Of a stretch of 51,929 nucleotides of DNA, positions 9,197 through 50,289 are shown piece after piece. Numbering within the stretch: position 1 is the stretch's first letter; every line of letters begins with the position of its first letter. Under the pieces are notes generated by a model, which was given only the letters and a program-made list of their open reading frames with translations, ran no database searches and was not told where the DNA came from. Made by a program: the position numbers and the translations under genes. The DNA is from Psammoneis japonica (Eukaryota): NCBI GenBank assembly GCA_008632985.1, contig QPGO01000341.1:1-51929 (forward strand). The letters run 5' to 3'.

Positions 9197-9199
9197 TCA

Positions 9200-11381: not shown

Positions 11382-11403
11382 GGATGTTTAGTCGGGCTAA
11401 CCG

Positions 11404-21725: not shown

Positions 21726-22219
21726 AAATTTTTAATTTTCAAATTTTCAATTATTCCCTTTTCTCTACATTTTCGAATATCTTTATTCGACCGTTCGGTT
21801 ATCTAAAATATTTTATTATATATAAGATAAATGCAATCTGGTCTCGAGTGTGTTGTTTTTCTTACACGGCATGTATGTTGCTCTTTGCATCGATGTTCAC
21901 ACTTGGCACACACCAAGCCAAAAAGGTCTCCCCCATTGCCCCCGTTTTTGAATTCTAGGGGATTCCCCAGTGTGTTAAAAAAATCTCCTTCCCAAAACCC
22001 CAAGCTTGCTTTTCATGCAGCATGTTTACGTTTCCCTGCTTCGGAGCCACACAATCTGTCCGTCAACCCTCCCGAGAGTGATGGCTTGTGGCTTAAACCC
22101 CCCTTTTGTCTTTTTCTTTTTTCTGGCTGGCTGCATTGCCCCCCAATGAAATGGGCGTGCACACTGCACTTTGTGTCGGCAGCAGCATGGTCTGTTCACA
22201 CAGTGCAGGGGGGGCTGAC

Positions 22220-23790
22220 AGAAATTGAAGACAGCTGGGTGCAAGAAAACAATGGCTCCTTGCTGCTGTCTAAACAGCAGATGAGTCTCCATGCAGAGAC
22301 CGTCACATGAGCTGAAAGACTGGTGTCGTTGACATCGGTGCCACTGTCATTGTTCTTGTGAGCCGTGTGGCTTAAAAGCAAACTGAATTGTGCACTGCGG
22401 AACTGAGAGCACACACAATTGTGTGTGACAAACCAAAATCTTGTTCAAATCCCATCACTCCCCGGTTTGCTTGAGGGGTCAACAGCGATGGATTTGAGGT
22501 CAGATTGGTTGAAAGCCTTGGGATCAAAGTTCCAAAACATCAGAGGACAAAGGAGGTTCCAGACTTGGGAGCAACCCCAATGCTTGCCAAGGATGTCAGC
22601 TGAGTTGCGGGAGCCTTCAATGAAAACAAAACTCAAGGAATCCAGAGGCAATCGCCTCATGCACATGATGGAAAGAGAGGGCGGTGTGTCGCTTGTGTGA
22701 CTTGGAGTGCAGGATGGTGGCACTCTCCACAACCAACTTGTTGTCACCAAACATGTGACATGTTTCACAAATGGGGATGCCAAGGCAACACAAAGTGGTG
22801 CGCAGATCAATGATCTGCTCAACGCCTGTCCTTGCGGCAACAAACTTGGATCCATGCGCAGCAGTCTCCACTGTTGCTTGTTTCTTAGAGAACCAATCAG
22901 CCGGGAACTTGTTGAGGAAATGGAGGATGCCAGTGACAGAAGGTCCAGTGAGCATGCAATGGAACAAGCTCACATCAAGATGCGCTCCAGCTCCAGGTGG
23001 GATCTCACACTGCTGCACTGTGACATCAACAGTTTTTTGGATCGCATCGCATGTCGTGCACTCACATTTCCATGTGTTGTGTTCCATGAAATTGTTTCAC
23101 ACTCCCTGTTTTGTGAAGCCAAAGGCTTTCCATTTTCAACATTTGTGAGAATGAAAATGCACTGGGTGTGTTCTTTGATGTCTGTGGAATGTGCCCAGGC
23201 AAACTGTCAATGATGTGCTGCAAGCATGAAGGAGGAGATGCATTTGTGAAATTGCCTCTTTTTCTGTTGGCAATCATTCACATTGTCATTGCAGGACAAA
23301 TTTACTGTGAAGCTTGCACGTGGAATTCTGCAGGCCCAACGTCACACGGAGTCCCACCCAGGACTTGAACCCATCTCAACGCAGTGTGTCATGGCAAAGA
23401 ACTTGCCAAGTGGCTCAGGCACATCTTGTGGGAGCAGCTCTTCTGCCTCCCCATGCACAGATTGGGCCCAGCCATGCACAGCCTTGGGAAGGTCCAAACA
23501 GTTGGGCTCCTTGGTGTGCACTTGTAGAGGGCACCATGCATGACGCATCTTTGAGAGGAATCCACAGATGCATTTGACATGGTCTGGGTGGCCTCGGTGG
23601 GGCACTGCACAGAAGCTAGACAGGGACATGACAGCCGCAGTGATGTCAATGTGACCAAGAGATGTGGCCCATTGCAGGGAACCAATCAAGGATTGGAGTT
23701 GGTGGATGCCCTCTGGCTCAAGCAATTTGGGGGTGTCAAGCTCAGGCTGGTCTCCCTTGTCAAGAATTGCTGAAGCTTCCACCCGGAATT
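22220..23790 (-). mobile_element. Copia/Ty1 (CoDi-like) element A: 3' part with RT C-terminus, RNase H, PPT and 3' LTR start; left boundary approximate
   Basis: 'GDQPELDT...QSLIGSLQW', 'SVTGILHFLN...WFSKKQATVETAAHGSKFVAA...MFGDNK...KRH...ADILGKHWG'. The PPT GGGGAG (22458-22463) abuts TG at 22457. Confidence 0.9.
22979..23375. mobile_element. 397-bp non-autonomous TIR element (MITE) inserted in Copia A
   Basis: Imperfect TIRs gatgcgctccagctccaggtggga / revcomp gatgggttcaagtcctgggtggga, with TCAA on both sides. Removing it restores the Copia frame 'THCVDVSLFHCMLTG'. Confidence 0.8.
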
Positions 23791-24180
23791 TGAACTTGAC
23801 AAGCTTTTCAGCAGGCAGAAAACAATGGATTCATGCTGCAGTCATCCAAAGCTCTTTTTGTGTGTGTGCGGGATTGAACCACATGACAGCAAGGCCAATG
23901 GCCAATTGAAGTGCAACAGCACTGGCTGTCTCCTGTTTGCATTTTGATGGATCCACCAAGTAAATTGTGGCATGTCCCTCCAACTTCAGCGGCAATGACA
24001 AAAGTTCCAGGGAGTGCAGCAGGGTTCTGGTCCAGCAACTGTGCGTGCTGATGCCATTTCCAAGTTTCAAGGGTGGTTGCCAAGTGCCAAGAACAGCGCA
24101 CAGCTTTGCACAGTGCGGCAAGAAAGGAGTGCACCGACTCAGTTGCGTCAGTCAGGGAAATCGACACAAGGATGTGTCCC

Positions 24181-24405
24181 TGCGATGACTCTCATCTGAG
24201 AGTTTGGGGGAGTTGACTGAAGGTTGAATGACAAGTGCATTGCTGGCGGCAGGGCTGACAACAGCAACAGAATTGATGAAGCTGCCAATGTCTTGTTACA
24301 CTGGATGTTGTAATTGTGAGAAGTTCTTGAGAAAAGCAAGGTGGCAAACTGCATGCACAAGCACAAAAGTGCGCAAATCGCGCATGAGTTTGCACTGTGT
24401 TGGCA
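24181..24405 (-). repeat. 3' LTR of Copia B
   Basis: TG...CA termini; ungapped match to 31137-31361; adjacent PPT GAGAGGGAG at 24406-24414 on the minus strand. Confidence 0.92.
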
Positions 24406-26801
24406 CTCCCTCTCAAACAAAGGAGCTGCCAACCGCAAAGCAACTTAAGAACAGACTTGAATTTAACAGTGACGAGCCCTTTGGTCACAATGTCAGTGTG
24501 TTGCAAGTCTGTTGTGATCTTGGATGCAGTGACTTGGTTTGGTTTCAGCTGTGAACGAAACCAGCGACACTTGATTGCACAGTGCTTGGATCTTGGTGTG
24601 ACTTGGCCAGGTTCCATGTTGGCCAGAGTCAAAGCTCCAGCATTGTCCTCCCACACAGCGGTCCTGATGGTCTTGGTGGTTCTCAGACCAACTCCAATGC
24701 CTTGAGAAATGGCTTGCATGGTGCAAAGGAAGGGAAGGACAGTTTTCATGCAAGTGGAGAGAGCGCTGCACTCTGCCTCCATTGTTGAGAGTGTGATCTC
24801 AGGTGCAAGCTTGCCAGGCTGGATGACAGGACAGTTCGAAATGCAAATGACGAATCCTGTTTGGCTCTTGACACAAGCCAGGTCTTGCTTGTCTTCATCA
24901 TGTGGCCACAATCCAGCAAAATCTGAGTCCACAAAGACATCAATGTTGAAGTCACCTCATGGCTTGAGGATCAAACCTTCCTCAAGCATCCATTTTGAGC
25001 ATCTGCCAATCCTTTCAAGGGCCAGTTCATGCAAGCAGCGTGGACTGTGAACAAATTGTGCTGCAGAGCTAACTGTGCAGGTGATGTCAGGCCTGGAATG
25101 GCCTTGAAGATGCTGGCATGATCAAAGGCTCCATTCGGCGGGTCTCCACCAGTGTTCTTGACCAATGGAGCAGCCAGTGCAGGCGTTTGGGCCTTTGGCA
25201 GATGGCCTGCATTGAGGGCTTTGATGACACATCTGGCTGGACCGCTCTGAGTGAGCTTGACAGTGCCATCGTTGGTGTCGCTGTCAATGTGTGCACCTGA
25301 AAAGCCTGCAATGGAATCTTTGACTTCGATGGCCAGACCGCCATTGACTTTGAGTTTTTTGACACCACGTTGATGTGCTCTTGCTTTGGAGAAAAGAACA
25401 ATGTGTCGTCAACATGCACAAGGCAGATGACTTTGTCAGACACAAAGAGACACGGATCAACATCATCCTGTGATTAAAATCCGGTGTCTTTCAATTTTGA
25501 TTTAAGGTGCAGGAAGAAATTTCGTGGTCCTTGATTGAGACCATGCATGGTGCCTGGAGCATCCTCGTGGCATTTGTGTGAACATGCCAGAGCATCCCCG
25601 CTCTTTGGATGTCATGGCATCCCATTTGGGATCCTTGTCAATTGGAGCATGCACAAAAGCAGCAACACTGTCGACTTGCTTGGTTGAGAGCTCCAGAATT
25701 TGGGAAAGCACAAGCATCAACTGCGCTGTTGTCCAATTGACAACTGGAGCAAAGGCATCAAAGCAATCAACACCCTCCAATTGCTCATCACTGCAGACAC
25801 AGAACCGGGCTTCACATTTTCGGATTGCACCATCAGGGTGCCATTTGCATTTGAAGGCCCAAGTGGATGGCAAGACATTCATCCAGTCTTGGCAGTCAAC
25901 TTCTTCCCAGGCGTCTTTTCCATTGACAAGGGAATCAATTTCAACATCACAAGCCTTGAGACAGGCTGCACAATTGGGTCCACTCATTGCTTCTTCCCAA
26001 GTGGGGTCATCCACAGAGTTTGCATTGGCTGCAAGGGCTAAAGGACGCATCTCCTTGAGTGCACCATGGACTTGATCGGCATTTTTGTTGAAGACATTGA
26101 TCATTGCACGTAAGTCTTTTGACCCCGGTGCGTTTGTGATGCCATCCCATTGCAGTGCCATCAAAAACTGCTCATTCAGTGCACCTGACTTTGCTGAGTG
26201 TTTGGGATTCTTGCAGGCAGTTGGCAATTCGTTGGACGGAGTTCGAGTGTCAGCTTTCACAGCTTCAATGAGACGGTCTGGTTTCTTGACGGTTCAGCCG
26301 CTTCAAGTCCAAGCAGGAGTTGCAGTGGCATTTTGAGCCAATTGGAGAGGCTCTGCTTTGTCAGAACCAAAATCCAGGTTGTCAGGTGAGTCGTGATGAT
26401 CAACAAGTGATGATTTGCAGTTGCTGTCATCACTGAACCCATCAATTTCGACTCCCTCTGGAGCCTCTAAAGTCACAGATTCTAGATCATCCAATGATTC
26501 TGCATTGTTGGTGGGAAGCTCTCCCTCTGGAGCTGAGACAGAAGAGGCAGGAGTTGGAGGAGGAATGCTGGCAGAGTGTTGTTGTTGTCACAACTTGCAC
26601 ATCTGACAACAGCTCTTGCGGTGGCGGCACTCTTCTGGCATCAGCCAATTGTCGCGTGTCACCAGGAGTTGGTGGCGAGGGTCCCAGGAGGGCTCTTGTG
26701 CGTGAGCATGGTTGACTGCAGAGTCAGCAGTGAGCAGGGATTCCCAGACGTTGGCGGAGAATGGGGCATCTTGGAAGAATCCCCCAGAGTCGCTGTTGGG
26801 T

Positions 26802-27248
26802 TGCAGCATGCATGCAGACAAAAGGTTGTTTTTGTCACGCCCTTTGTGACATTTAAAGGCTGCAACACGTCGCCGTGACACATTGGCTCTTGCCAGCAGC
26901 TGTGTGTTGCACTCCTCCCCATGTGTCACGCGTCCATGCGGCTCTTTACTGACGTGTGCTGACACTGCACGGTTTTGGCGGAACAGTGTGGGTACGTGCG
27001 AAGGAACACACAGAACTGCACAGAGTTTTGCGCGTTCGACAGTGATCAACGTTGCTGCAGACAACTCCCACTCAGGGTTTCGAACCCCTGGCCTCCTGCC
27101 CAATGGTTGCGATGAACCACTCCGCTGTGAATTCACAATGCAGCATGCATGCAGACAAAAGGTTGTTTTTGTCACGCCCTTTGTGACATTTAAAGGCTGC
27201 AACACGTCGCCGTGATACATTGACTCTCATCAGTGGCTGCACATTGCA
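26802..27248 (-). mobile_element. 447-bp mini-LTR element (TRIM-like): 110-bp LTRs (26802-26911, 27139-27248), PPT and 4-bp TSD
   Basis: Both repeats run TGCA...TGCA. PPT GGGGAGGAG at 26912-26920 (minus). GGGT at 26798-26801 and 27249-27252. It interrupts the Copia B integrase region. Confidence 0.88.
27063..27134 (-). other. tRNA-like sequence with Pol III A-box and B-box inside the mini-LTR element (not a canonical tRNA)
   Basis: Minus strand: CAGCGGAGTGG (A-box-like; GCG/CGC D-stem), then GGTTCGAAACCC (B-box; T-loop TTCGAAA). The anticodon arm is poorly formed. Confidence 0.6.
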
Positions 27249-30200
27249 GGGTGCCATTGAAAAGTGGTCATCATGGACCACATGGTGTTGGGGGCCAACA
27301 AAGCCTGTCGTGAGATTGAGGATCAGGCCAATGTCAGTGGAGGGTGCTGGGGACATGCCAAGGCAAGTTTCTGATGGAGTGGGAGAAGCTCCTTTTGACC
27401 TGGCATAAGGTTCTGGTTGGTTTGCGAAGTGATGGACAAAAAGGTGTTCAGCTGGAAAGTGGTGCTGACAGGAGCCACATTGCATTTGGAGACTCCGGCA
27501 GATGTCGGGTCGGACATCATCATGAAAGGCAGGTCGCTGTCCTCATTGCATGGAAACTCAAGGGCATCACCACTTGGGAGAGTCAGTGTGGTTTCATTGC
27601 CACCTGCCAAACATTCACCTTGATTGCCATTTTTTAAAAGTGGGGCTGAGGGCTGAAAAGGTGAACGGAAGCATCAGGGATGCAATGAGCCTCACAGTTC
27701 TGATGGTGCAAACAACATTCCAGCAGTTGATTGTGCCCCATTCCACGTGACCTTGACCAACTGCTTGGGCGGCAGAGGACAAACCATTGACAGTGGTCAA
27801 TTCAGCGGGTTCCAGGGGGCCAGCAAAGTCACTCAAATGCGGAGCGAGGGAAGAAGAGGCGCCATTGTGGAGTGCCACGAGCGCATCAACAGGTGAGGCT
27901 GATGACAGAGCTTGACATTGGGAGCTGTCAAGTTGTTGCAAATTGGCTGGCAACTTGATTGGTCTCATCATGTTGTCAGAGAGCCAGGGTGGATCCAGCA
28001 AGGATGCATCAGCAAGGGATGGTCCTGTTTTCAAGGTTTGGCGGGAGAACACAGCTGCTCTGCCAAAGCCACCACTCAAGCAGGTTGCTGCTGTCACATG
28101 GGACAGGTTGGTGGCAACACAAGAGAGTGTTGGTGCTTCACCTCAAGCATGCAACACATCCGATGAGGCAAGTGCTTTGATCATGTGAAATTGTGCAAGT
28201 GGATTGATGCCTTGCACAAACTTGTCTGATGGGGTGCCACACTGCATGTCACACACAATCCAAGTTTGGTGTGGCAGTCGGTGTTTGATGTGGAAGTGCT
28301 CCTTGAGTTTGTGTTCTTTGGGGTCTTCAGGTGGTGCAAAGTTGGATGGATTTGAATCAGCAGGGTCAGATTCTGCAGTTTTAGTCCACAGACAATTGCC
28401 CAATGGATCAAGCAACATGACAAAATTGGTTGGCATTGCACCGTGTGGCAAATCGCACATCTTGTAGGGCAGATGCAGCAATTGAGCACAAGCTTTGTTG
28501 GCTTCTTGGATGGGATCAACGCAAGCAAACCTGGGTTTTTTTGGCTTCGGAGGTTTGATTCGACGTTTTGATTTTAACAATTTTGAGGACTTGGATTGAC
28601 GACACTGCTTGAAATCCTGTTCTTCAATGGCAGTGTTGTCAGGAACTGGCACGCAACATGTTTGGAGCCAAGTTGTTGGATGGTGGAAAGATTGCAAGGG
28701 ATCTCTTCATGGGTGTCGAACTGGACAACGGCACAAATGACGCATGTGCGCATGATGGTTTAATTTGTGGTGCGATTGATGATGATGCGGATGTTGATGC
28801 AAGGTGTGCTCCAAAGATGGGGTGACAACAAATGCAGGCATCTTGTCATGTGACAGCAAAGGATTCTTGGAAAAGAGCAGCAAGTGGAAAAACACTGCAG
28901 AATGGCAGAGACGGCTGTGTCTCCTCCCTCTCAAAGAATCTGGAGAGCAAACCACAGGAAGAGGGACTGCGCCGCAGTCACATGAGCCTGGATGTCCCTT
29001 CCAGGACAGCAAGATTGGAGAGGGGTGGGCTGTGCACTTGAGAAGGGAGGTGCACCCAAAGCTTCAAGAGAAGGAAGCAAAGAGACCCTTGATGGTCTCA
29101 GTGACCTCGTGCTGAGCATTTGCAATGGCCACTTCATGTTCAAGATTAGGAGCAGAAGCAGGGGCTGGAGCAGGGGCTGGGGCAGGAGTGGGTGCGGCCA
29201 GAGGTGCAGCAGCAGCACCAGTGACTTGAGCCATGGGACACCAGCACTTGGTCTTGCAATGATGACAATGATCTCTACCATCAATGTTGTGGCAACTGTC
29301 GTTGTTCTTTTTGGCTTCAGTCGGTGGCTGCCACTTCTTGGGAATGGTTTCTGTGGGTTCACCATCCCTCTTGGCTGAAGTGTCATTCTTGCTCTGGGCT
29401 CATTTTGCATCAAAAAAACAGTTTCTTGTTGGCATGAACTCAAGCCTTGTCAACAGGCTTCTTGCAATCAGACAAGGTGTGTGGACCACTGCAATTGAAG
29501 CATGTGACCACACCAGTGACAAAGGAGGTTGCACTCTTCTTGGTGGTGTGACACCTGACCACTTGTTGGAAGAGACTGGAGACAAATGCTGTTTCTTGGC
29601 AAATTCAAGAAGATCAGAAACTGAAGGTGTGTCAGCCATTGTGGTCATCAGCATGCAACGGGACTTGAACTTGTTGACCTTGGTGTCTTTGGCAAGATGG
29701 TCAAACAGTTCATTGAACTCAGGGACACTTGAAGTTTGAAAGACTTCAGCAAGTTTCTACATGAAGTTGGCGGGAATGACAGATTGACCCTTCTGATCTT
29801 GAAGATTTTTGAGTTGTGAACATCCACCATGGATGAGAGAGACAACTTTGCTTGCATCTTTGCCGTCAAAGTTGGATGTCTTGAGGTTGGACATGGCAGC
29901 AACCAAGTGACAAGCAGCCTCTTCTGAGTTGCTCTAGAGGAGCTTCATCACAAGGATGAAAAACAAAGGTCCACCTTGCTCCTCTTGTGAGCACTTGAGG
30001 CAGGTCTCGTTGACTTTCTTCTGAAGGGTGCACAAAGCATTCCTTTCAAAGCAGCCACTGGTGAGATGAAGGTTTTGGCTGGCCCAAGTCCCATTGGGAT
30101 CCTCAAGCATCACAGCGTGCCACTTGTTGCCAGCGGTGACTTCCTTTTTGGTGACAGTGGAGTGTTCCGAGCAAAGGTCATGAGTCGTGCAGGTGTCAGG

Positions 30201-30666
30201 ATTGATGACTTGGAAAATGTCACTCATGTTGCACTTGACATGATTCGACCACATGGTTGTGATGGACACAGCCAGATCACGAGCATCTTTGAGTCATCAC
30301 TCATGTCATGCTTGGCATGATTTGACCACCTGGCCGTGAAGGACATGGCCAGATCATGAGCATCTTCAAGCTTGTCTGGATTGTTGATGTTGAAATTGAG
30401 CAAGTTGAAGTGCATCTGGTGCTTGGCAATGGCTTTCAGAAACAGATTGTTGAGCTTGTCAGGGTCCAACTTGTCCCTCTGCTCTTTTGTGTGGAGAGCA
30501 GCAAGGGTTTCCTTGGATGCTTTTGGTGTCACGTGGACATTCACCTTCCATCGGTGCATCTCCACCACAGTTGACATGGTGCTGGCTGGCAGAGTCGCAG
30601 CACTGCTGGCTGGCAATGGAGGCAGATTAATTGTGCTGGACAAAGGAGAAGGGCTGGTCATTCGTG

Positions 30667-31010
30667 TCATGCAGGCTGTGCGAGAAAGCGCAGGTTCTTT
30701 GGATGATGGTCAGTGGTGTTGCTGTTGTCAGCTTGAATTTGAGCCCACTGTTCAGTCATGCAAGTGACAGCAGCCTGTCGGTCTTGGACAGTGATGGTAC
30801 GACAAAAGTTTTGAATTTCGTTTGCAACAACCACACGATCGCCAACGCGAAAATCCGTGACGGTCAACTCTCGGTTGGTTGAAGTACAAGCAGTGCCGAC
30901 TCGTTCAAGGTTCTGTTGATCAATTTTGTCTGTCATGTGACAAATGAGGTTGGCTTCTTGCAGTTGAAGTGCTTGCAGTTGTTTGATGAGGTCATTGAGA
31001 ACAGCAGAAC
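30667..31010 (-). pseudogene. Small ORF upstream of Copia B gag: coiled-coil followed by a KOW/SH3-like motif
   Basis: 'LNDLIKQLQALQLQEANLI...FRVGDRVVVAN...HHPKNLR', between the PBS and gag; its stop overlaps the next ATG at 30670. Confidence 0.5.
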
Positions 31011-31124
31011 GTCAACCGGACATCGATGTTCTGAAAGAAGAAGTGTACGTAAAAATGTACAGAGCTCAATTCTTGTCCAACTGAGAGAATGAGATGAGCG
31101 CAGGAGTCATCAAGCATGATGCTT

Positions 31125-31136
31125 GGGCTCCTAACC
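31125..31136 (-). other. Primer-binding site of Copia B, GGTTAGGAGCCC
   Basis: Directly follows the 5' LTR on the minus strand. One mismatch from GGTTATGAGCCC, the internal initiator-tRNA-Met (half-tRNA) PBS type of Ty5/Drosophila copia. Confidence 0.75.
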
Positions 31137-31361
31137 TGTGACAACTCTCATCTGAGAGCACAGGGGAGTCGACTGAAGGTTGAATGACAAGTGCATTGCT
31201 GGCAGCAGGGCCAACAATGGTGACAGAATCGACAAAGCTGCCAATGTCTTGTTGCACCAGATGTTGTAATTGTGAGAAGTTCTTGAGAAAAGTGAGGCAA
31301 TGAACTGCATGTGCAAGTGTAAAAGCGCACAAATTGCGCATGAGTTTGTGCTGTGTTGGCA
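31137..31361 (-). repeat. 5' LTR of Copia B
   Basis: TG...CA termini, 225 bp, matches 24181-24405. Confidence 0.92.
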
Positions 31362-32699: not shown

Positions 32700-35185
32700 C
32701 TGTCAATTCTGTTGTGTGTCTCTGCAGCCTAAAACTCTGTGTGCCCACACACTTCCTTTGTGCCACAGAGATCTGACACAGATCAAAATTGTTGCAGAAA
32801 CCAGAGCCCAATGTTGTGCTTGTCAAAATGACACTGTGGACACCAAACAAATTGCTGCTGTGGTTGCCACTGCCACCCCTGTTGCAATCCAGCCTCTTGT
32901 TGACACCAAGAACAATCCTCCAGCAGGCAACTTTGCTGGATCTCTGGCTTCAGCATGTGATGCCTTGCTCAATTGTGGTTGCCGAGGCAATGTGGATGTC
33001 TTCAAGAGTGCTGCCAAGCCTCCACCTGCTGCTTTCAGCACCAGAAAGCCAAACATCCAAGCATTGCTCAATGAACTTTCTACAAGGTCCAAAGCTTTTG
33101 GCTGGAGCAACATCCCAATGATCAGTGTCAATCAAGGAGTCACAGGACAGGAGCTGCAGCTCAGAACTGAAAAATGCTTGCATCCTGCAGCAACATCACA
33201 CCAGCACAGATCCGCGCAGTGTCCATGACCTGCATCAATGGACAGAATCATGGGTCTCAGAACAACTGTCAGTTGCATCCATGCCTTCATTGCTCTGTGG
33301 ATGAGTCTGCCAAGCAAGCCATGGCAAATGAATCCAAGCAATGTTGCAGTGGTGACAAGGACTGCTGCAGCACATTGTGTCTCAAGCCCCCACTTTCAAA
33401 GGCTGAGATTGATGTGCATGCAGCAGCCTCTCACATTCACTCTGAGCTGACTGCCTTGAACAGCTGCATGGCAGACACAGTCAAGCACATTGTCAAAGCA
33501 TTCAACAAGCATGCAAGGGACAGAATCAAACCCCTGTGTCAGATGAGCCCAACTGTGAATGAAGGTGGCAGTCAGGTTTGGAGTCAATCTGTGTGATGCT
33601 GTTTGTCATGCTTTTCATGATCCTGGCCTGTGCCAATGAGATTCTGGAATCAACATTGATGAAAGTGATCCCCATTGTGGTCAACATGATTGGCAGTGCA
33701 TGCGATCTGCTGCACTTCTCATCTGACTTAGCCCAACCTCATTGTCCTGACTTCAGCTCCAAACCTCAAGTCCAAAGATGACAAACTTGTTGCAAAACTT
33801 GTTCTGCTTGTCAACGCCAATGTGTTTGCTGCAAACAGGGTGGATGCATCATGCACAAAGTTGTGTGCATCAGCTTCTGCTGCCTGTGAACTGGTCCTCC
33901 GATGCTCCTCTGCCACTGACACCAAGCAATGTGCTGCCTGCAATGACCACAGCTGTGATGCAGACTTGTTTCTTGTTGGCATTGATGATCATGCTTCATG
34001 TTGCCCAACCAACAACAAGTCTGACTGCATTTTGCCAACAACAAAAGTTCATGTCAACGTCAAGGGCATTTCTGGTGTTGTGATTGCCTCCCACAAAGAA
34101 GCTGTCCACTGGAGCATCCAAGACAAAAAAGGTGAGAACCATGCCTTGCATGTCCCTGGTGTCCACTGCACCCCCAACCTGCCAACGTGGCTCCTGTCTC
34201 CGCAACACCTGGCTCAAGCTCCCAAGCCACAAGAGCACACCCATGAAGGGACGACTCATCCAATGACCATGAACAACCGCATTGTTCTTGAGTGGATGGG
34301 CTGGAAATGCATGTGGTTGGTCCCCCTCAACAAAAGCAGCATTGGCATCTTTTGCTCTGCCCCTTCTTTCAAGTCTCTTTGGGCTCTGTGCGAAACATGC
34401 AACTGTCATCATGACGAAAATTTTTGTGCTTTCCAAGCAAACATCCCTGTGTCCAATGACAACACCTGCCCCTGACCCTGCTGCTGCTTCCACACATGCT
34501 GCTTTGCCTGATGGGGTCCAAGAGCATGCCAAGCATCACTCCAAATCAACCAATGTCCATGCAGGCTTGTGGGCCCAGGGGTTTGTCTGGAACACATGGG
34601 TTGCAAGCTGTTGCCACTGCGCATGTGCCATGCAATGTGTGTGGTGGGTCAACGCACACACCAAGTGCAGCAGCTCTGTGGCCCTCACCCAAAACTGGGC
34701 CCCAGCCTTTTTTCCTGGGAGACTCCTCTTTTGGTTAAAAAAAAATTCCCCCCTGAACCCATGAGCCTGCCATGTCCATGCTGACAAAGTTCCTGGCGTG
34801 ACACTGCTCTTCCAAGTGATGCAGCCAATGCTGCTGACAACTCAACACCTTCGCCAAGCATCAACGCGGTCAATTTTAACCTCAAAACAGACAACTCAGA
34901 AGCTGTTCTGGTTGTTGAGGATGACGAACTCATCACACCAACAAGTCCATTGCACAGAATGCTTCCATGGCAGTGCTGACTTGGACATCTCCCACTTTTG
35001 TGGATTAAAGCCAATGTGCTGCCTGTTGATTCAGAAAAGCAACAAAAGCACCATGGAAAGGCAAAGGCAACTTTGGACAAAACAAAATGTTCAAGGCTGC
35101 GGAACCTGGTCAGAGTGTGTCAGTTGATCAGCCAGATGCAGCAACACCAGGCCCAGTTGGTCAGTTGAAAGGATGGGCAACAACA

Positions 35186-35283
<98 letters not shown>

Positions 35284-35610
35284 GCAGCAGCAGCAGCAGC
35301 AGCAGGAATTGAGACTGTGGTGGTGAAGCAAGCCTTTGAAGCATTCTTGCAATCATCGCTCCGAGTGAAAATTCTTCACTGTCATGCAGATGATGGCTGT
35401 TTTGCTGACAATGCATGTCTCTCTGCTGTTAAAGAAGCAAGCCAAACAACGTCATTCTGTGGGATCAACGCTCTCTTTCAAAATGACAGGGCCAAGAAGA
35501 GAGTGTGCAACCTTCAAGATTCTGCCAGAGCAGAGCTGACTCAGGCAAAGCATTGGTGGCCAAACACAGTGGAAGTCACCCTGTGGCCTTGCACCATCTG
35601 ACATGCAAAC
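32700..35610 (+). mobile_element. Copia/Ty1 (CoDi-like) element C: gag, protease and integrase, truncated
   Basis: gag 'SQNNCQLH...SKAEIDVHAAASHIHSEL', protease 'FLVGIDDHAS...VKGISG...LLSPQHLAQ', integrase 'PGQSVSVDQ', 'HCHADDGCF...FCGINALFQN...LWP'. Confidence 0.9.
35189..35305 (+). repeat. Compound microsatellite (CAA)n(CAG)n, about 39 triplets
   Basis: Directly visible; lies inside the Copia C integrase. Confidence 0.97.
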
Positions 35611-40745: not shown

Positions 40746-41299
40746 CCATGTTGTGGCGGAGCAAAACAGTCTTGCCCTTGGTCTGGAGAAGCTTCAGCTT
40801 GTACACCAGCTGCTTGAAAGCAGTGCCTTGACCATCTTTGATGATGCATCTAAAGGACACATCAATCAGAGACCAGTGCATCATTTGAGGTGTGAATCAC
40901 CATTTCCAAATTTGTTCATTTCTGCACAAGCACAGAACAAGTTGAAGTTGCCAAAGTCAAGCAGGAAAAGGTCATGCCAAGGTTCTCCCAGGCAACAAGG
41001 CTGCAGAGCAAACAGCCATTGGTTGCTGATTGCCAACCAGGAGAAAGTCATCAAATGCTGCATGCCACACCACATGGTGACATCCAGATGCAGCACAGTG
41101 TGGAAGAATGTTGCAGCCTGAAGTGCCAAGCAAAATGTCTTGAGATGACTCACACAGATGGCAGGAACAAGCTGTCCACATAGAAACCACATTGCAATGA
41201 GGAGCTCAATCCAGTCATCATTTGAGCAAGGGCTGAAGATGTGCTCATGAGATCCACAAGGCAAAATGCAAGGCTGGTGCAACAGGACTTGATGGTGGC

Positions 41300-44200
41300 C
41301 AAAAAGCAAAGCTGCTGATCCCTCAAAACAAGCGCAAGTCCTTGTTCAACATGGCAAATCTGGTGGATGGAAAAGGGGGTCCTTGCCACATCCAGCTCAC
41401 AGAGGATGCTGAACCATGTCACAGACATCTTTGCATGTGAAGCAATGCTGCAAGAGGAAGCAGAGTGCCTGCGTGAAGTTGGTGTCCTTGAATGTGTTGG
41501 TCATTTGCAGTGGGCAGCTCCATCATTTGTCATGCCAATGAAAGATTTGACAGCATGGTTTGTTGACAATTTTCAAGAGCTTGGCAAAAGAATTGAAAGA
41601 TTTCCCCACCCAGTTGTCCCCCACATCCAGGGTGCAGTGCTGCTCAAGCTCAAAGGCTGTGTGTGGGCAAGCAATGTGTTGGATCTCAGTGTGGGACACT
41701 GTCACATTTGACTTGGATCCAGGTCCTGCCAGTGGGCCGCTGCAACTCACCTGATGTTCAAGATGCCAGGGCCATTTGAAGATTTGTTTTTCATGTGTGC
41801 ACACTCAGATGACATCCTTGCAGTCATGAAAGGCACTTGCAAAGACCACTTGGAGAAATCTGCAGCCACTCTGCAGTGTGTGTGCAATGCGGGCTCCAGG
41901 TCAATGCAAGAGAATTGCTTTTTGTCAAACCCAGCTGGGGCACCTGGGCCACATGGTCAGACAAGAAAGGATGAACCCAATGCCATGTAAAGTCAACACT
42001 GTTGAGCACATTGCAAAGCCCACCAATGAGCAACAACTTTGTTCATTTGTTGGCATGGTGAGCTGCTGCTGCAACATGTGGCTGAGATGTTCTGAAATCT
42101 TGTCACCACTTGCAAGATGTGCAGGTGTGGGACTTTTTGATTGGAGTGGATGCTGGTCAAGGGTGAAGCATTTAAAGCCACCAAAAGAGTGTCATTGGAC
42201 AATGTCTCATCAGCACATTCAGATTTCAACAAGCCATCTGAGGCTCATGAAAATGCCTCCAAATGTGAACTTGGAGCAAAAACTCATTGTCTTTTGCATC
42301 AGAAAGCCCAGTGGCATGGTGCAGCTGAGCTGTGCAATGACAAACAGACAGAGAGGGGATCATTTGCTGTCCTAAAGACATCAAAAGAAATTTGGTTTTG
42401 TTCCTTGGTCAATGTGCACACTTGTTGTGTGTGCTGATTGCAAATGCCTCACATCATGTGGAGCATTTGATGCCCAATGTGTCATGTGTTTGCAGTTGAT
42501 GTGCAATGAGTGCAGCCCCAAGTCACAGCACATCAAGGGGCATCATCACCTGGTTGCACATGCCCTCAGCCATCTGGCAATGCAACCCACCAGCAGTGGA
42601 GATGCTGGCTTTGCACCCTTCGTGTGAAGCACTCACTTTGCAGATGATCACAGTGCTGCCAGCAAGCTTTGTGCAAATGAAAAAAAACAAAGATCAGAAT
42701 TTTTAGCACTGCCACTTCATTGCCAGCTGGGCCAGTGCTGGTCCACCCACACTCCCAGCATGCTGCTTCAGTGTGGCAGGAGCTTGTGCAGGATCAGCCA
42801 GACTGGGTGCCACCAGAAGGTGATGCCCCACCAAAATGACTGAAAACGAATGACTTGCACAAGGAGGTTGTTGTGTGCTTGTTGGTGACAGCCACAGAGG
42901 GCATGCCATCACAACTGCAAAAGGACAATGGCACTCATGCAGGTTTTCAAAAGAAGCAACAAGACACTTTGGAACATGCTGCCAAAACAAGCACAAACTT
43001 GGATTGCAAGGCCACTCATTCTTGACCAAGAAGAATCACAACAATGACAAGAAGCTTGGCCCTCAAAGCAGTGAGGAGCTGAGACAGCTGGCAAGCAGAG
43101 GAGGAAAGATTGTGCAGGAGTTGGATGCATTGAGCCAGGAGCCTTGAAGGCAAGGTGGGCAGGCAATCAGGAAAAACATTCACAAGGGGCAGCAACAGAG
43201 GCAGCACTTTCTAACCCCAAAGAGTGAAGAACTTGATTGAACAGCAAAGAAAAGAGGGTGGAATTGAAGACTGACTGGCATGGGTGGAAGCAGTCATCCA
43301 GAGTTGTGACAAGCAGACAATCAGCAACTTTGCACAGAAACACAGCCAGATCTTGTGCAGAAATGCCAACAGGCACAGCAAATGGATGACAATCAAAGGA
43401 CACTGAAGGATGACTCATGCTTGTGCCAGAAAGCACCACAAGCAACAGAGGCAGTGCTTTCACCCTAGAGAGTGAGGGGAAAAGAAGCAGCATGGAAGAC
43501 CTGCTGGCATGGACAGAAGCAGTCCAGAGATGTGATGATGTGCAGATTGTCAACAGTTTCTCCTGAACTGTGTGGAAGTTGTGCTGAAACCTGTGTAGAA
43601 AATTTCTGAGATGACAGAAAATTGAGAGCAACAAATGTTGCTTGCAATGCTGCAGTGAGGTTGAGGCTGTCATTGGCAAAACAAAATGGGCTTGTTGGAG
43701 CTGACATCACACTGTCTGAGAAGGGCAACATCAGCACAAGAAGTTGTGCAGAAAACCATGTAGAGACAGGGGTGTGCAGCTGACATCAAAAAGTGTGATT
43801 GTAAAAAGAACAGCTGCCTGTTTGCTGAAATGTGCTGCACTCCAGTGTGCACTTCACCTGTGTGCTTTGTGGGGGAGGCACACAATGACAGCCGGCATGC
43901 CACAAGGACAAAATTGTTGTGCTGGAGGTGTTGACAAAATCTCCAGCTGAGTGGTGCCTGAACAGCTGCACTGCCCTGCAAGACATGTGCAGAAACACCC
44001 ACTGCCCATCACTTGCATTGGCCTGGCATCATGAGGGCTGCAGGGCATTCTGCATGTGTGAAGTGCAAACAATGCCAGGAGATGAAATGCCAAGCACAAC
44101 CAGCATTGCAAGAAGCTGCCAGAAAAAGCAGCCAAGACAATCCTGTGGGAGACCTTGCTTTTGGATGTGACAGGGGGTCCCACCAAATTGAGCAATGCAG

Positions 44201-44830
44201 AAAAAACACTCTGCAAAGGTGTGCAGCAGCAACTGTGATTGCCCTGCCAGCAGAGTGGCTCAAGTGCCAAGATTTCAAAAGTGTGTGCCAAACATGCAGG
44301 TGTCACAGAGTCACAGCAAATGTCACAGAGCAAACCTGGCCATGCAGGCATCCAAATCCACAGGTGAGCACTTCTGCGAAATGCACACACCAGACACTTG
44401 GAGATGTGGTGTGCTTGTTTTCAGTGAAGGACATGGAGTTGGACAAGGGCAGCCCATGGAAGGGCATCCTTTCAGCCACAGCTTTTGCCATGCATGCTGC
44501 ATCACATGCCGCTGCATGGGCAAATCCCAAACAACAGGTCTTTGACACAACGCAGCTCTTTTGTCTGTCACCCTTTGTGCCAAGTGGAAGCCCACCTGAT
44601 GCAGAAAGCCAAGCTGATGCACTCAAATGACAAATGCAAAAAGAGCATGAAACAAAAGGAGTGCCAACACACCACAGGGCAGTTGGTGCTTGCTGTCAAA
44701 CAAGGGCAAAAGACAAAACACAGAACTGGCTGTCATGCAGGTCCTGCCAGTGTTGTTAGCATGAGTGACAGCACCACTTTGCATGCACAAGATGGTGTGC
44801 TGACACAGACATGTGCAATCTGCACCAGAC
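41300..44830 (+). mobile_element. Gypsy/Ty3 remnant: RT and RNase H (~41300-42590), integrase (~44080-44830), with unrelated eroded DNA between
   Basis: 'WAAPSFVMP..D...FV..FQEL.KRI.RFPHP', 'LDLSVGHCHI', 'AHSDDIL' (degraded YLDD), 'LGHLGH', 'DFNKP', 'HIKGHHHLVAHALSHL', 'HQTLGD...PWKGILSATAFAM'. Confidence 0.88.
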
Positions 44831-45620
44831 TGTGCACTGCCATGCCACATCACACATTTCTTGATGCAACATTTCTGATGAGCACTGCTGGTTGATGCAC
44901 TGCTGGAATGGCCCATTTTGCTCAAACTGCAGGGGTCGTTGGCCCCAAGTTTGCATGAGAGGCCCATGAACAAACATGACGACATTGTGGTGGCAGCATT
45001 GTCAGCACTTCTTCACTGCAAGGCAACAGCACAATGTTGTTTTTGACACAACAACACAGATGAGTGCCAACAGCTGGTGCATTAGAATGGTGGCCCATTT
45101 TGCTCAAACTGCAGGAGCTTGTCATTTTGTTCAACTTGTGTGAGGCCAACACCACTTTCATGATGATGTTGCAAGCACTTTGCTGCAGCCTTGTTGCAGT
45201 GTGTTTTTCTTTACAACACAGATGAGTGCTGATGGCTGGCACAAGAGAGAACAACCAAATTTGCTCAAACTGCAGGAGTCACTGTTGCACTCTCAAATTT
45301 GAATGAAAGGCCAGTGGTGCCAACACGATGACAACATGACAATGGCACATCAGAAATTTCCCACAGCTGCACACAGCAGCATGTCTTACATGATGTGACA
45401 AAAGCGCAGAGATGAGCATTGATGGCTGACACAAAGGATCAGCCTGTTTTGCTCAAACTGCAGGAGTTCATCACATTCTTGTTCAAGCTTGCATGAGGCA
45501 GCCAACAGCAAGTTTTTATGATGATGATGTGTGGCAGAGTTGTCAGCACTTTCTTGCAGCCTTGCCACAGTGTGTCTTTCTTGATGTGACAGCACAAATG
45601 AGTGTTGATGAACCTGTCAT
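44830..45620. repeat. Degenerate tandem array of about 4-5 units of ~160-190 bp
   Basis: 'tttgctcaaactgcagg' recurs at ~44917, 45098, 45260 and 45448; a 'gatgag(ca/tg)' motif recurs at ~44878, 45059, 45221, 45411 and 45597. Confidence 0.85.
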
Positions 45621-45739
45621 GTTCTGGCACACAACAGCAATTTAGGGATGCACTGGGCAGCAACAATGTTGCTGTCATTGGCACATTGCCAATGTGCACC
45701 TGAAATGCTGGTCAGCAAGCTTGGCTGCTGCACTGCCCC

Positions 45740-48250
45740 CACATCAGTGCTTCAGAACTTCCAAGAGTTGATCTTCAGATGGCCCTGATGCATGATTTGG
45801 TCATTTTGGAAGACTGGTGGAGATTGTGCTTTGAATCCATGGGGCACCCTGCCCAGACTAAAAGCGGCTTCCATGTTGGCAATTTTTGCTTTTTCAATTG
45901 CCACAAAACAAGTCTTGGCATGTGGCCCAAACACCCCAATGGCACATGCACACTTGTGGGAGATTGTCACATGCAGAGACAATGCTGCAGTGAACATGAA
46001 ATGGCAGGTGCTTCAAATGGTGGCATCTGCTGTTGTGCCATTCTTGTAGAGTGCAGCATCTTCACTCCTTGTGTCTCTTTGTGATGTCTGCATGGTGCCA
46101 CACAGAGTTGTGCATGGTGCATGCATGCATGAAGCCCCCCACATGGGGCTGCACTTGCATGCCAAAAATGAGCTCTCCAAGCTGTCCATGGCTGTGACAT
46201 CTTTTCCTGGAAAATGTCAGGTGAGTCATTGTATGAGTGCATTGTCAGGACCTGCATCTTGCACCTTCTAAATGTTCAGAGAAGCATGCACAGCTTTTGG
46301 CTGCTGCTGTCTGCAAGTCAAATGTGGCAGGAGCATCTGGCATTGGTGAGGAGATCCAACAATGTCACCCACCACACAAAGCCCTCAAGCTCATGCTGCA
46401 TGTTCTGGATGTGAGAAATTGGGTGGGGCAATCTTTTAACTCCATTGTTGAGCTCCCAGAAATCACCAACAAACCATGCCACAAAATCTTGCTTTGGCAA
46501 GGAAAATGATTTAGCTGTGCACTGCAGACACAGTTGGTTGTGCACTCAGTGATGCCAACTCTTTCTCAGCATTGCTTCACCTCTCCTTGGGGCTTTGCAA
46601 GGATGTCTGCAACATGGCTCAGCATGATCCTCTTTAAGCTGGGTGTGCTGGTGGGGACCCCCTTTCCACTCACCCAACATGCCATCAAAAGCAAGGACTC
46701 AAACTTGCTCAACAAACCAAGCAGCTTCACTTTCTGGTCACTGTCAAGACCTGTTGCACCCTGCATTGTGTCCTCAAGGCATGCTGGCACACACTCAGCA
46801 TCTGAGATCTTCACAACTCTGTTGCTTTCTGAAAACAGTGGTGGCTCTGGATCTTAAAAACAAATGAAGGTTTCTGCAGTTGCTTTTGCACACTTCAATG
46901 GCATCTCTTGTCATTGACCTTTGGCCACTCCAGCATGTCTCATCCAACAACCATGTGTCAGGTTTGCTTGATTGTCAATTGTGTGCATCATGGTGGGCTT
47001 CACACACAAGTTCTGCAGTTGTGGACAATTTTGGCAACTGGAAATTGGCAATGCAAGAACTGTGTGCCATCTTGGAGCTGCCTGCCACTGTGGTTTTGGC
47101 TGTTGTGTGACTCAAAAGCCATTTGCTTGCAGCACTTGGCATCTGGCAGCACGTGCTCCTGATGCCATCATCTGGCACTGCCTCAATTGTTTCAGGCTTG
47201 CCTTCACCATGCTTGGCATCCATGGCTGCAAACAAGATTGCTGCCAGTCAAATGTCTGTGCTTGATGTGTGTGCGGGGCTGGCCTGTGCAACATGAGTGT
47301 GATGGCACAACAAGTGATGCACTGACCCTGTCTGACTTGTGCCAGCCTGCTTTTTAGTCAGGCGCTGCTGTTGTCCTCTAAATTCTCATTGGAGTCACCC
47401 AGGGAGAGGGCACAGAAGTGATTTGGCTCCTGTTTGCAAGCCTTGCATGCCACCCTGCAGTTCTCAAGCACATCTTTGACTCTCACCTTGGCAGCTTTGT
47501 CAAGCTCCTCATGAGTGTGCAGTTTCTGTGTGGCTGGCTTCCCACTGCTGTTCATGTGGGACATCTTGAGACATTTCACCCCATGGCTCAAACTGAGATG
47601 TTCTTCCACATTGTGCACCTGGCATCATCACCACCATGCAATGCTCAGCATTTCTTGATGCCTTTCTCTCCTGACTGGTGACACCCCATTGATCTTTCTT
47701 CTTTCAACCATCAGAGCATCTTGTCATCGCAAATGGCAGCACTCAACGTGTCTGCATTTGCCTCCATGACAAGTGACAGCACACCAGCAGCATTGCAACA
47801 GCCCTGCTTGCACTGTTTTAGACCATGTGAGAACGTCAACAAAGTCAACATCATGTGCACCCATCCAAGTGGTGACCGACATTGGGAGACAAGTGTTCTT
47901 GTGCAGCAATGGCAATGAAGAGTCTTTCACAAATGAGGGTGAGTTGCAATTGATGTGCATGTTGTCACTTTTTTGGTGCCAGCCCTCACATCATGATCTC
48001 TGCAACAGATGATGTTGCTTCGAGCACACAATTTTGACAAAGTCTTTGCCCAGGAAACAGCCCCCTCTGTTGTGCACAAGAGGAGCAAGTTCCATCAGAA
48101 AGCATTTCTGTGTCAGCTCTGTGTGGCTTTGAAAGACCAGCCCTTGCACTGGACCAAGCAATTGAGTCCATGTCAAGTGCAAGGGTTGTCAACTAGATTC
48201 TGAAATGCGTGGGTGCTGCTTGAACAAGGTGGCCTGCACACTCACTCTGT
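45740..48250 (-). mobile_element. Second Gypsy/Ty3 remnant (gag, protease, RT, RNase H; heavily deleted), opposite orientation
   Basis: 'KISDAECVPA...LLGLLSKFESL', 'SFSLPKQD...FVGDFWELNNGVKRLPHPISHIQNM..ELEGF', 'SPDIFQEKMS'. Confidence 0.8.
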
Positions 48251-49299
48251 TGCCAAAGCTGCTCAGCATTTAGACTCTGTTGGTGCAGTTTGTGGTGACT
48301 TGTTTGAAGACAAATGGAAAGCTTCTTGGTGTTGTGGGTGGTCACTCAGTTGGCGATCTCATTTCTCCATTGTCACAGTCGTCTCTTGACATTTTTTTCT
48401 CAGCTTTTCACAAAAGAACACTGAAGACACAACATCTAAAATCAACAGGGCAGTGCAAAAACAGCAACAATGGCAGAACTCAGTTGTGCTGCTGGTGTCA
48501 GAAACAGCTCTGATTTAGCATTAAACCATGACAACATCCATTGGAACTAGAATTTGGCATGGACAGATGTTGCATGGCTCCATTGGACTATTTTCAGTTT
48601 GGTGCATCACGGGCGTTGACTGCCATCTCTCATGACACTGTCTCTAGATTTGTTTTCTCTGATGCCTCCATTCTTGAGCAAAACCCAAACTGCTTGCGAA
48701 TTTTGAATGTGCTGTGTTGTTTTGTCTGGAGAGCATCGCAGCTGGCTGCTTTGCAATTGACATGGCTCGAATGTCCCCCAGGCAAGCGGGCAATCAGTGT
48801 CGCAAGAGTCTAGCACCTGTCAATGACAAGCCTTGGGGCATCCCTCAACAAACACCCCAGTTTGGACCCCATTTGAAAACAAGAGGATGGCAGATGGCAG
48901 TGCAGTGCTGAAGCAGAAACAATGACAACACAGAATGCAACAACATTGCAATTGCTGCGACCATCATCACAGTCCATTGACTTGCATGCAGAACAAATTG
49001 CACACAAATGTAGATTGCCACAGCGTGCTTTTAGAGTCTTTCTGCCTCCATTGCACAAAGGTTCAAAGCATGTTTCAAATGGTCAAAACATGCCAATGTC
49101 AAACATTGACAGAAATCAGTGGCGCAGGACAATGTTGCCTCAAGAGCGCCATCATGAGATGGAGCTCAAGCATTCGCGCATCTTCAGAGTGAAAAATGTC
49201 ACTAAAAATGTGAAAGTGGAGGGGGTGCACTGTAGAGACAACAAGAGAACTTGCAAGTCAACCACCCTCTAAATCAACACTCCCTGTGAGTGAAGACTT

Positions 49300-50285
49300 G
49301 CCACATGAGGATGCGATGGAACCCCAGACCTGTGTTCCGTCAATGGCATGATCTGCTTGGCAAGCTTTTGCTCCTTCGCAGATGAACGCTGCTTTCTGTT
49401 TCAACAGCCATGACCTGGCTGGGTCAAGCAAACAGGCAACTTCCTGTGGTCAAAGACACAGGAGCAACATGGACTCCAGGCTGGAGTCATGCATTTGATT
49501 TGCCCCGACCTCCTGACTCAGCTGGCAGCACCTGTGCCACCCAGAGACAACACGCCATCAGCCAAGTGAGTTGTGGAATGCCAAACAAGAGTGAGCCATT
49601 TGCTCCAGAAGAAGAGTGAGCCATCCTCAGAGATTGTGGCTTCAAGCTTGGCAAACAACAAACACATTGTGTGAGACAACAAGTTGTGATCAAAGCAAAA
49701 TGGGGGACATGTCTGGACCGCTGTTCAAACAATCTTGCAAAGAATTTGTGCTGGAGGAACAGTCTGTCAATCAGCACAATTGGGGCATTTGGTGGTGGGG
49801 GAGGAAACTCACCCGGTTGCAGAAGGCTTCCTCTGAGCATCTGAAAGACAGAGTGACATCCGGGTTGTGAGGATGATTGTGGCTGGCATCGCGAAGGTCT
49901 GTTGAGCATTTGGAAGATGTGAGAGTTTCTTGTGAAGATGACCACCCCTTTCACATTCTGCAATTGGGTGCGACCTTTGAGAAACCAAAAATCCCAGTCA
50001 ATCATGTTTCAGGATGACTCGAGCATGTCTTGGATGTGCCCAATTTTGCAAGCTTTGGAGCTTCCCAACACTGCAAAGGAGGAGCATGGAATGTTGTGTC
50101 TGGGAATGTCGAAGAGAGAGGAGTGCCTCATGCTGGGCAAGCAGCATCAAGTGCAAGACATTGTGTGCTGTGTTGCACCCCACAACTTTTGTGAAGGCGG
50201 ACAGCGTGGATGGCAAGCTGAGGATGCTGGTGGAGGAGCTTCCAAGCCTGGATCTCTGAGGGATTTGACTCGGAGCAAAACACGA
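49300..50285 (+). mobile_element. Possible PIF/Harbinger-type DDE transposase remnant
   Basis: 'RRSMECCV/LGMSKR' followed by 'DIVCCVAPHNFC' resemble the E..FG.LK.R and C..LHN motifs; very degraded. Confidence 0.35.
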
Positions 50286-50289
50286 TGAA

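Follow-up and report, generated by a model that had tools for sequence, protein, structure and literature searches.

Near-complete loss of TpA in a nest of dead LTR retrotransposons of Psammoneis japonica: probable hypermutation of integrated DNA

We analysed a stretch of 51,929 nucleotides from Psammoneis japonica (contig QPGO01000341.1 of assembly GCA_008632985.1), hereafter called the window. Its largest feature is a nest of dead long terminal repeat (LTR) retrotransposons, with remains of Ty1/Copia and Ty3/Gypsy elements, and three smaller blocks without a recognised element lie to the left of the nest among ordinary DNA (Table 1). In the nest and in the blocks alike, the dinucleotide TpA (written TA where sites are counted) has been largely or entirely lost.

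Table 1. Features of the window and the evidence for each (coordinates on the whole window)
Feature	Coordinates	Strand	Evidence or remark
Main hypermutated domain, nest of dead LTR retrotransposons (about 28 kb)	22000-50400		Dinucleotide counts
TA-free block, without recognisable protein	2221-3866		TA 0 of 78 expected; CpG 7 of 96 expected
TA-depleted block	8918-10714		TA 3 of 107 expected; contains repeat copy 9051-9195
Partly converted block	12479-17751	+	TA 39 of 292 expected (O/E 0.13); CpG 276 of 311 expected (O/E 0.89, normal)
145-nt repeat copy inside depleted block	9051-9195		0 TA
Twin of 9051-9195 in ordinary DNA	11254-11398		4 TA
Ty1/Copia polyprotein remains (reverse transcriptase, RNase H, part of gag and integrase)	24429-28331	-	tblastn, 7 full-length relatives
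Candidate 3' LTR of Copia	24179-24405	-	227-nt direct repeat, 83% identity to 31135-31361
Candidate 5' LTR of Copia	31135-31361	-	Pairs with 24179-24405
Copia reverse transcriptase motif HVDD in place of YVDD	25405-25416	-	
Copia RNase H motif EAEC	24768-24779	-	Last position Tyr in 102 of 104 aligned relatives
Separate Copia integrase fragment	35311-35778	+	tblastn with relatives
Ty3/Gypsy reverse transcriptase and RNase H remains	41439-42609	+	Frame change near 41860
Gypsy reverse transcriptase motif HSDD	41802-41813	+	Tyr there in 23 of 25 aligned relatives
Gypsy integrase, weak match	43974-44543	+	24% identity, E 3e-5
Second Gypsy reverse transcriptase fragment, opposite orientation	46192-46689	-	Mapping of relatives
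Flanking 778-aa open reading frame	5760-8096	-	Ordinary TpA, 14 Tyr; one database relative found, 45% identity
DUF1501-like gene, last exon	21164-21724	+	Ordinary TpA; ends about 250 bp before domain edge
eIF5B gene fragment	51116-51929	+	Ordinary TpA; beyond right edge

Across positions 22000-50400, where base composition predicts 1862 TpA, 111 are present, an observed/expected ratio (O/E) of 0.06; in 200 mononucleotide shuffles of the same sequence the count had a mean of 1862, a standard deviation of 31 and a minimum of 1770. CpG is also depleted (318 against 1689 expected, O/E 0.19), and CpA and TpG are abundant at 3231 (O/E 1.86) and 3347 (O/E 1.85), respectively. These counts bear out the first-pass annotation of this DNA, which had described about 28 kb of transposon DNA nearly devoid of TpA and rich in CA and TG beside genes of ordinary TpA content: five flanking and intervening stretches, 14,709 bp in total, have O/E values of 0.54-0.67 for TA and 0.89-1.14 for CG. 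The smaller blocks that it had listed are real as well, with limits that we refined to those of Table 1, and the right edge of the domain, which it had placed at 50285, had to be moved outwards by 100-200 bp (positions 22000-50285 alone hold 110 TA and 313 CG). The edges are sharp: on the left, dense TA ends at 21976 and is sparse from 22027 onwards; on the right, zero TA occurs in 49270-50368 and normal density is back from 50480, which puts that edge at about 50368-50480.

Contigs that another pipeline had built from a public DNA sequencing run (X1, depth about 35) show 0 differences to the window across several kilobases of the nest, for example over 27891-31139, and span the left edge at 21073-22204. 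Because these contigs are identical to the window and the edges are sharp within single contigs, an assembly artefact is ruled out. Run X1 may be the source sample itself, which leaves an independent origin of the match unproven; the agreement is a check on the assembly rather than on independent biology, and the earlier suggestion that the pattern might be missing from other sequencing of the species is answered to that extent. The same sample has a second run (X2), whose contigs align with the genic stretch 19141-20683 at no more than about 90% identity and with hardly anything else in the 20 kb; they derive from a paralogue or a related genome. No RNA run containing the region is listed.

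Frameshifts and in-frame stops interrupt the Copia polyprotein, which also lacks the integrase core; the high-scoring segment pairs with one relative (P0002) hold 11 stops (9, 1, 1, 0, 0 and 0). Its one readable open reading frame (ORF) retrieved 287 matches, with identities of up to 56% among the best 120 of the 287, and the one named match is a diatom Copia relative (P0101). Since the candidate 5' LTR lies about 2.8 kb past the last matched gag residue, there is extra DNA between them. Two stretches, 22169-23502 and 26838-27504, reach a summed contig depth of 4e4-6e4 against about 35 for single-copy DNA and belong to one very high-copy repeat family, a piece of which sits within the Copia element where the integrase core is missing; much of the nest has single-copy depth at 90% likeness. 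A (CAA)35 microsatellite occupies 35178-35283, directly upstream of the separate Copia integrase fragment. For the Gypsy element, an exhaustive search with the ORF at 41830-42372 returned 228 relatives, and all ten of the long relatives that were scanned have RVT_1 and RT_RNaseH_2 domains. Pfam itself recognised little: the nest ORFs (91 + 104) gave a single RVT_2 match (E 8.4e-6; its 26 bits fall short of the curated cut-off, 31.6), the other matches among these 195 ORFs being at chance level only, and 100 flank ORFs gave no match. No recognisable proteins were found in the remainder of the nest or in the three small blocks, Rfam returned 0 matches, and a tandem-repeat scan found nothing relevant.

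The direction of change can be read from codons that relatives of the two elements conserve. We defined conserved columns as those with at least 70% agreement among at least 15 relatives for Copia and at least 60% among at least 10 for Gypsy. None of 18 conserved Tyr columns is kept in Copia (8 His, 7 Cys) and none of 9 in Gypsy (3 His, 4 Cys), and a pooled run of 26 Tyr columns gave 10 His, 11 Cys, 5 other residues and 0 Arg. Leaving Tyr and Arg aside, the same run had 661 conserved columns, of which 474 were kept. The motifs that had been reported as altered, HVDD and EAEC in Copia and HSDD in Gypsy, are all present as described, on the strands given in Table 1. At codon position 1, T had changed to C in 10 of 26 cases before A, compared with 1 of 48 before T, 0 of 34 before G and 0 of 33 before C; at codon position 2, A had changed to G in 11 of 26 cases after T, compared with 5 of 59 after A, 2 of 43 after C and 1 of 73 after G. 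Conversion in conserved codon columns is thus 38-42% at TpA and 0-8% in other contexts. The change runs from TA to CA or TG and is restricted to TpA, and the alternative of equal T-to-C rates in all contexts is excluded.

These columns answer two further questions. Because His and Cys arise about equally (10 and 11) and the CA and TG counts of the domain are likewise close, both strands must be affected, in keeping with the strand-symmetric T-to-C/A-to-G process that the first-pass annotation had proposed. Tyr never becomes Arg, so that one hit protects a site, as expected if the TpA duplex is needed. The possibility that the elements lacked TpA from the outset is answered indirectly: intact relatives retain Tyr at the converted sites, from which it follows that the elements started out with TpA.

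When a retrotransposon inserts, its two LTRs have the same sequence. The candidate Copia LTR pair differs at 38 of 227 nucleotides; 24 of these mismatches form 12 adjacent CA/TG doublets, 10 are single CG/TG, CG/CA, TA/TG or TA/CA differences, and there are no single transversions. Such doublets are expected where one ancestral TA (or CG) was resolved independently in each LTR. The changes thus postdate integration and arose independently in each copy. Background divergence between the LTRs is near zero and TA sites are saturated, a picture that fits a rate exceeding the background by orders of magnitude.

Repeat copies in and beside the smaller blocks tell the same story. The block at 12479-17751 forms a tandem array, whose units at 14071-15617 and 15612-17158 are 95.5% identical and differ at 69 of 1547 positions, including 11 CA/TG doublets and 10 single differences of TA against CA or TG; at one site one copy has Tyr where the other has His. 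CpG is intact in the pair (92 and 97 per copy), so its CA/TG doublets derive from TA. The 145-nt repeat gives the polarity directly: of 7 differences between the twins, 4 are TA in the copy in ordinary DNA against TG (3 sites) or CA (1 site) in the copy inside the depleted block, that is TA to TG/CA. A further repeat pair of 205 nt at 8696-8902 and 20481-20685 (83% identity), which lies in ordinary DNA, keeps its TA and has no CA/TG pattern. One of its copies stops 16 bp short of a TA-depleted block. Because the outer 145-nt twin was spared, the 205-nt pair keeps its TA and much of the nest is single-copy, targeting looks regional rather than homology-based, and the original description of a process acting "in repeats" was too narrow.

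The footprint is not confined to the window. A Copia protein on an ENA contig (P0081) has 0 Tyr in 555 aa; of the 19 positions at which an intact relative has Tyr, 16 are occupied by His or Cys in it. Among the 148 Gypsy relatives listed with at least 80 residues, 11 are free of Tyr; where the reference has Tyr, these carry Cys or His in 69 of 85 cases compared with 26 of 415 in 40 controls, with the reservation that the query is itself mutated, which favours Tyr-free matches. Metagenome-derived reverse transcriptases with 0 Tyr and His or Cys at conserved Tyr sites include P0081, P0210, P0215, P0257, P0216, P0208 and others; such proteins were found on contigs from ENA, JGI/IMG and Logan. Probably they represent further hypermutated elements, and, judged by these protein sequences, other public sequence, some of it environmental, clearly bears traces of the process. 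A metagenome scan with the Copia ORF of the window found no relative, and a scan with P0081 found one ordinary, non-depleted Copia contig (L001, TpA O/E 0.49).

CpG loss is a second process. CGN codons for Arg read TGN or CAN in the nest, and of 37 conserved Arg columns 14 are kept, the losses including 9 Cys, 6 Gln, 2 Trp and 2 His. The partly converted block has lost most TpA with its CpG normal (Table 1), and several of the Tyr-free public reverse transcriptases retain most Arg; TpA loss is therefore faster than, and separable from, CpG loss. The CpG loss itself is probably ordinary methyl-cytosine decay. Deamination of methyl-CpG in silenced transposons likewise depletes CpG and yields TpG and CpA; however, it cannot remove TpA and is absent from the TpA-depleted block 12479-17751, and so it is a companion process and not an explanation of the TpA loss. 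A literature search for cytosine methylation, or DNA methyltransferase and CpG, in the comparison species introduced below, the alga Bigelowiella natans, found none.

The 111 TA that survive depart from a random sample in the bases around them. With the window's ordinary DNA as baseline, TTAA and CTAA/TTAG are over-represented about 3.8-fold among them, ATAT is absent, and ATAC/GTAT, ATAG/CTAT and ATAA/TTAT stand at 0.11-0.40. An additive model with one effect per strand, and with conversion declining as A > G > C > T at -2 (or, equivalently, as T > C > G > A at +1), ranks all ten strand-collapsed classes exactly (R2 0.97), and 3 of 20000 permutations reach this fit; ATA/TAT are most converted and TTA/TAA least. 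In each of three sub-regions (the nest's left half, its right half and the partly converted block) conversion is again highest with A at -2 and lowest with T, G and C swapping or tying. We regard A > G > C > T at -2, with T at -1, as a candidate extended motif.

The first-pass annotation knew of no described pathway of this kind. One has since been reported: Mettrop et al. (2026; bioRxiv 10.64898/2026.01.13.699255) describe A:T-to-G:C hypermutation, at TpA only, in viral DNA integrated in the genome of B. natans. According to the main text of this preprint, 231 of 302 nuclear mutations in mutation-accumulation lines fell in integrated giant-virus and virophage regions, and 230 of the 231 were A-to-G or T-to-C, all at TpA. 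The rate in these regions was about 6e-7 per site per generation, roughly 1000 times that of the remaining genome, and was seen in only some lines, with elevated values of about 1e-7 to 1e-6. The preprint also lists 324 low-TpA coding sequences (CDS), enriched in reverse transcriptase and DDE domains, and 124 clusters of TpA-poor, CpA+TpG-rich 1-kb windows, and it proposes DNA adenine deamination, with the ADAT2-like Bn78255 as candidate (Mettrop et al., 2026). When its cut-offs for 1-kb windows (a Rho of at most 0.43 for TpA and of at least 1.52 for CpA+TpG) are applied to our sequence, with a Rho formula for CpA+TpG that may differ slightly from that of the preprint, 31 of 51 qualify, 28 of them consecutive from 22001. 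Going by what the preprint sets out, the phenomenon has already been described, and the window is a further, more extreme example of it.

In both cases the change is A:T to G:C, is confined to TpA and yields TpG or CpA depending on the strand, and both show sharply bounded regions of foreign DNA with long-term TpA loss and CpA+TpG gain (Mettrop et al., 2026). Mobile DNA, in the form of Copia and Gypsy remains, is targeted here too, as are the three smaller blocks without a recognised element, and adjacent genes are untouched. The two cases differ in state: in B. natans the live targets, which are viral inserts, retain much of their TpA (Rho 0.45), whereas the LTR retrotransposons of the window are saturated (0.06), and the preprint names transposons merely as potential targets (Mettrop et al., 2026). 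Word searches of its main text returned no CpG, trinucleotide, flanking, context or retrotransposon; by that measure, LTR-based timing, the joint loss of CpG and a flanking-base hierarchy are shown by the window and are absent from that text. In the literature we found no older or second description of hypermutation from TpA to CpA/TpG, only papers on repeat-induced point mutation (RIP).

RIP, as it operates in ascomycete fungi, is similar in that point mutation with a dinucleotide preference irreversibly inactivates mobile DNA and leaves compositionally distinct blocks beside normal genes. Its direction is the reverse, as had been pointed out before: RIP changes C to T mainly at CpA and so creates TpA, whereas here TpA stands at 0.06 and CpA/TpG at 1.85. 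RIP also needs duplicated sequence, unlike the process in B. natans, whose target is single-copy (Mettrop et al., 2026); in the window the 145-nt twin outside the domain was spared, although short repeats escape RIP too. APOBEC3 resembles our case as a host deaminase with a dinucleotide context that destroys the coding capacity of retroelements. Its substrate, however, is C in the minus-strand cDNA while reverse transcription is under way, and strand-biased G-to-A changes result; those seen here are A:T to G:C, affect both strands alike and follow integration. The matching chemistry, A to I read as G, is that of TadA/ADAT2-ADAT3, of ADAR and of engineered adenine base editors, and the natural tRNA target, A34, follows U33. 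The natural substrates of the polynucleotide adenosine deaminases are RNA, unlike the DNA considered here, and we know of no natural genome-wide DNA adenine deaminase demonstrated to act in defence. A-to-I editing, including that by ADAR, favours a 5' U (Discussion of Mettrop et al., 2026).

We conclude, with a probability of roughly 0.8, that the integrated transposon DNA and the three smaller blocks underwent TpA hypermutation at the level of DNA. In this explanation the palindromic TpA would be turned into TpG or CpA by an A:T-to-G:C transition at the A after T, on either strand, and the process would continue until TpA was almost gone and halt within about 100 bp of neighbouring genes. Most likely, a deaminase that needs a 5' T would convert adenine in DNA to hypoxanthine, and for this step an ADAT2/TadA-like enzyme is the published candidate (Mettrop et al., 2026). 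Such a deaminase would be recruited to silenced or foreign chromatin domains and not by sequence homology. After one hit no TpA would remain on either strand and the site would be immune, so that Tyr codons would become His or Cys and never Arg. On older elements a slower and separable decay of CpG to TpG/CpA, probably from cytosine methylation, would add to the CpA/TpG excess. The outcome would be irreversible inactivation, with the catalytic Tyr lost and the frames broken by stops and frameshifts. A role in defence, the targeting signal, a link to heterochromatin and the enzyme are parts of this picture that we infer.

The same footprint could start from the other base. TpA being self-complementary, a change at the T before A and one at the A after T give an equal outcome, and a thymine in TpA that was enzymatically modified, for example hydroxylated to 5-hydroxymethyluracil (5hmU) through TET/JBP-type activity, would produce it if faulty repair or copying then put C in its place; in dinoflagellates, 5hmU occurs preferentially at TpA and TpC. 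Against this, 5hmU pairs with A, and we know of no high-rate T-to-C change arising from it. The authors of the B. natans study favour adenine deamination, with their ADAT2-like candidate (Mettrop et al., 2026). Evidence from the window is neutral between thymine modification and adenine deamination, and we consider the former unlikely. A single machinery that erases both TpA and CpG to CpA/TpG, such as a deaminase for A and C in DNA, would account for the joint depletion of both dinucleotides in the nest and for the decay of Arg to Cys, Gln, His and Trp, and ADAT2 enzymes that edit A and C in DNA are cited by Mettrop et al. (2026). It is hard to reconcile with the block that lost TpA and kept CpG, with the Tyr-free public reverse transcriptases that retain most Arg, and with the B. 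natans viral regions, where all but one of the 231 mutations were at A:T pairs (Mettrop et al., 2026); we judge it distinctly improbable.

Editing of transcripts by ADAR- or ADAT-type enzymes, fixed through reverse transcription, is attractive at first sight in view of the 5' U preference of A-to-I editing and of the retroelements that are the main targets here. It predicts A-to-G on the sense strand only, that is Tyr to Cys, and His is about as frequent as Cys; moreover, the LTRs of one insert differ by CA/TG doublets, which places the changes after integration, and blocks without a recognised element, as well as the tandem array, are also affected. We reject RNA editing on strand symmetry and LTR timing, and hold it to be scarcely credible. 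Avoidance of TpA by selection or codon habit, for example under a TA-cutting nuclease, has a parallel in viruses, which avoid UpA and CpG. Selection would nevertheless have retained the catalytic Tyr, and 0 of 26 Tyr columns are kept in frames that carry stops and shifts; copies of one sequence, be it the LTR pair, the tandem pair or the 145-nt twins, differ at exactly the TA-derived sites, which speaks equally against a sequencing or assembly artefact, as do the agreement of the separately built contigs and the edges that are sharp within single contigs. With the Tyr columns and the LTR pair contradicting them, both selection and artefact are rejected as very unlikely.

Several points weigh against TpA hypermutation by adenine deamination as we have set it out. 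The enzyme and the cause of the CpG loss are both things we infer, and sequence alone cannot separate A-deamination from T-directed modification. There is no sign of current activity, the sole DNA run with the region being identical to the window. What links the window to B. natans is an identical footprint together with similar background frequencies: ordinary DNA of the window has TpA 0.040 and CpA+TpG 0.140, and CDS of B. natans have means of 0.041 and 0.137 (Mettrop et al., 2026), values that are compatible and not diagnostic. Known viral CDS as a group are not TpA-poor in B. natans (Mettrop et al., 2026), which complicates any account of the targeting. The context model rests on the 111 surviving sites, some of which may be new TA, and takes neighbouring ordinary DNA as a proxy for the original composition of the elements.

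A few features of the smaller blocks and the flanks remain to be described. The TA-free block at 2221-3866 has a strong strand skew (GC skew 0.36, AT skew 0.32), and no relatives were found for its longest ORF, in which Cys, His, Leu, Ser and Pro are abundant. ORFs of the tandem array have 0-1 Tyr per 370-528 aa, and a Protein Atlas search with one of them gave no usable match. A 36-nt motif with a splice-donor-like AGGTGAGA/AGGTAAGA occurs four times in 13243-17175 at a spacing of 1.1-1.5 kb, which suggests a tandem array of three to four intron-bearing gene copies, broken by a gap of 435 N at 13357-13791. Beyond the blocks, the named match of the DUF1501-like gene is a bacterial protein (P0356). 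Searches with two proteins of the window retrieved no database copy of either, which is mild evidence against a well-annotated reference genome as the source. The eIF5B gene at the end of the window has at least three frame changes in 51470-51800, two of them at short homopolymers (AAA for AAAA, TT for TTT), and is either a pseudogene or affected by homopolymer-length errors of the assembly.

So far the phenomenon is supported by one preprint (Mettrop et al., 2026). What the window adds is the saturation of LTR retrotransposons, post-integration timing based on LTRs, the separation from CpG decay, a candidate flanking-base motif, and Tyr-free reverse transcriptases among public metagenome proteins. 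For annotation, it means that hypermutated elements evade Pfam, as shown by the one weak match in 28 kb, and reverse transcriptase proteins without Tyr, with His or Cys at conserved Tyr sites, offer a simple marker for mining public data. That the process reaches beyond B. natans, as a wider eukaryotic defence which Tyr-free reverse transcriptases already reveal in environmental metagenomes and in which a natural sequence-specific DNA adenine deaminase, with a single-strand motif readable from the surviving sites and limited to chromatin domains with edges of less than about 100 bp, saturates LTR retrotransposons, is a tentative proposal that we see as possible rather than probable. A natural rewriting of A:T to G:C at a defined dinucleotide in chosen domains would stand as a mirror image to both fungal RIP and APOBEC defence and, if true, be a natural counterpart of adenine base editors.

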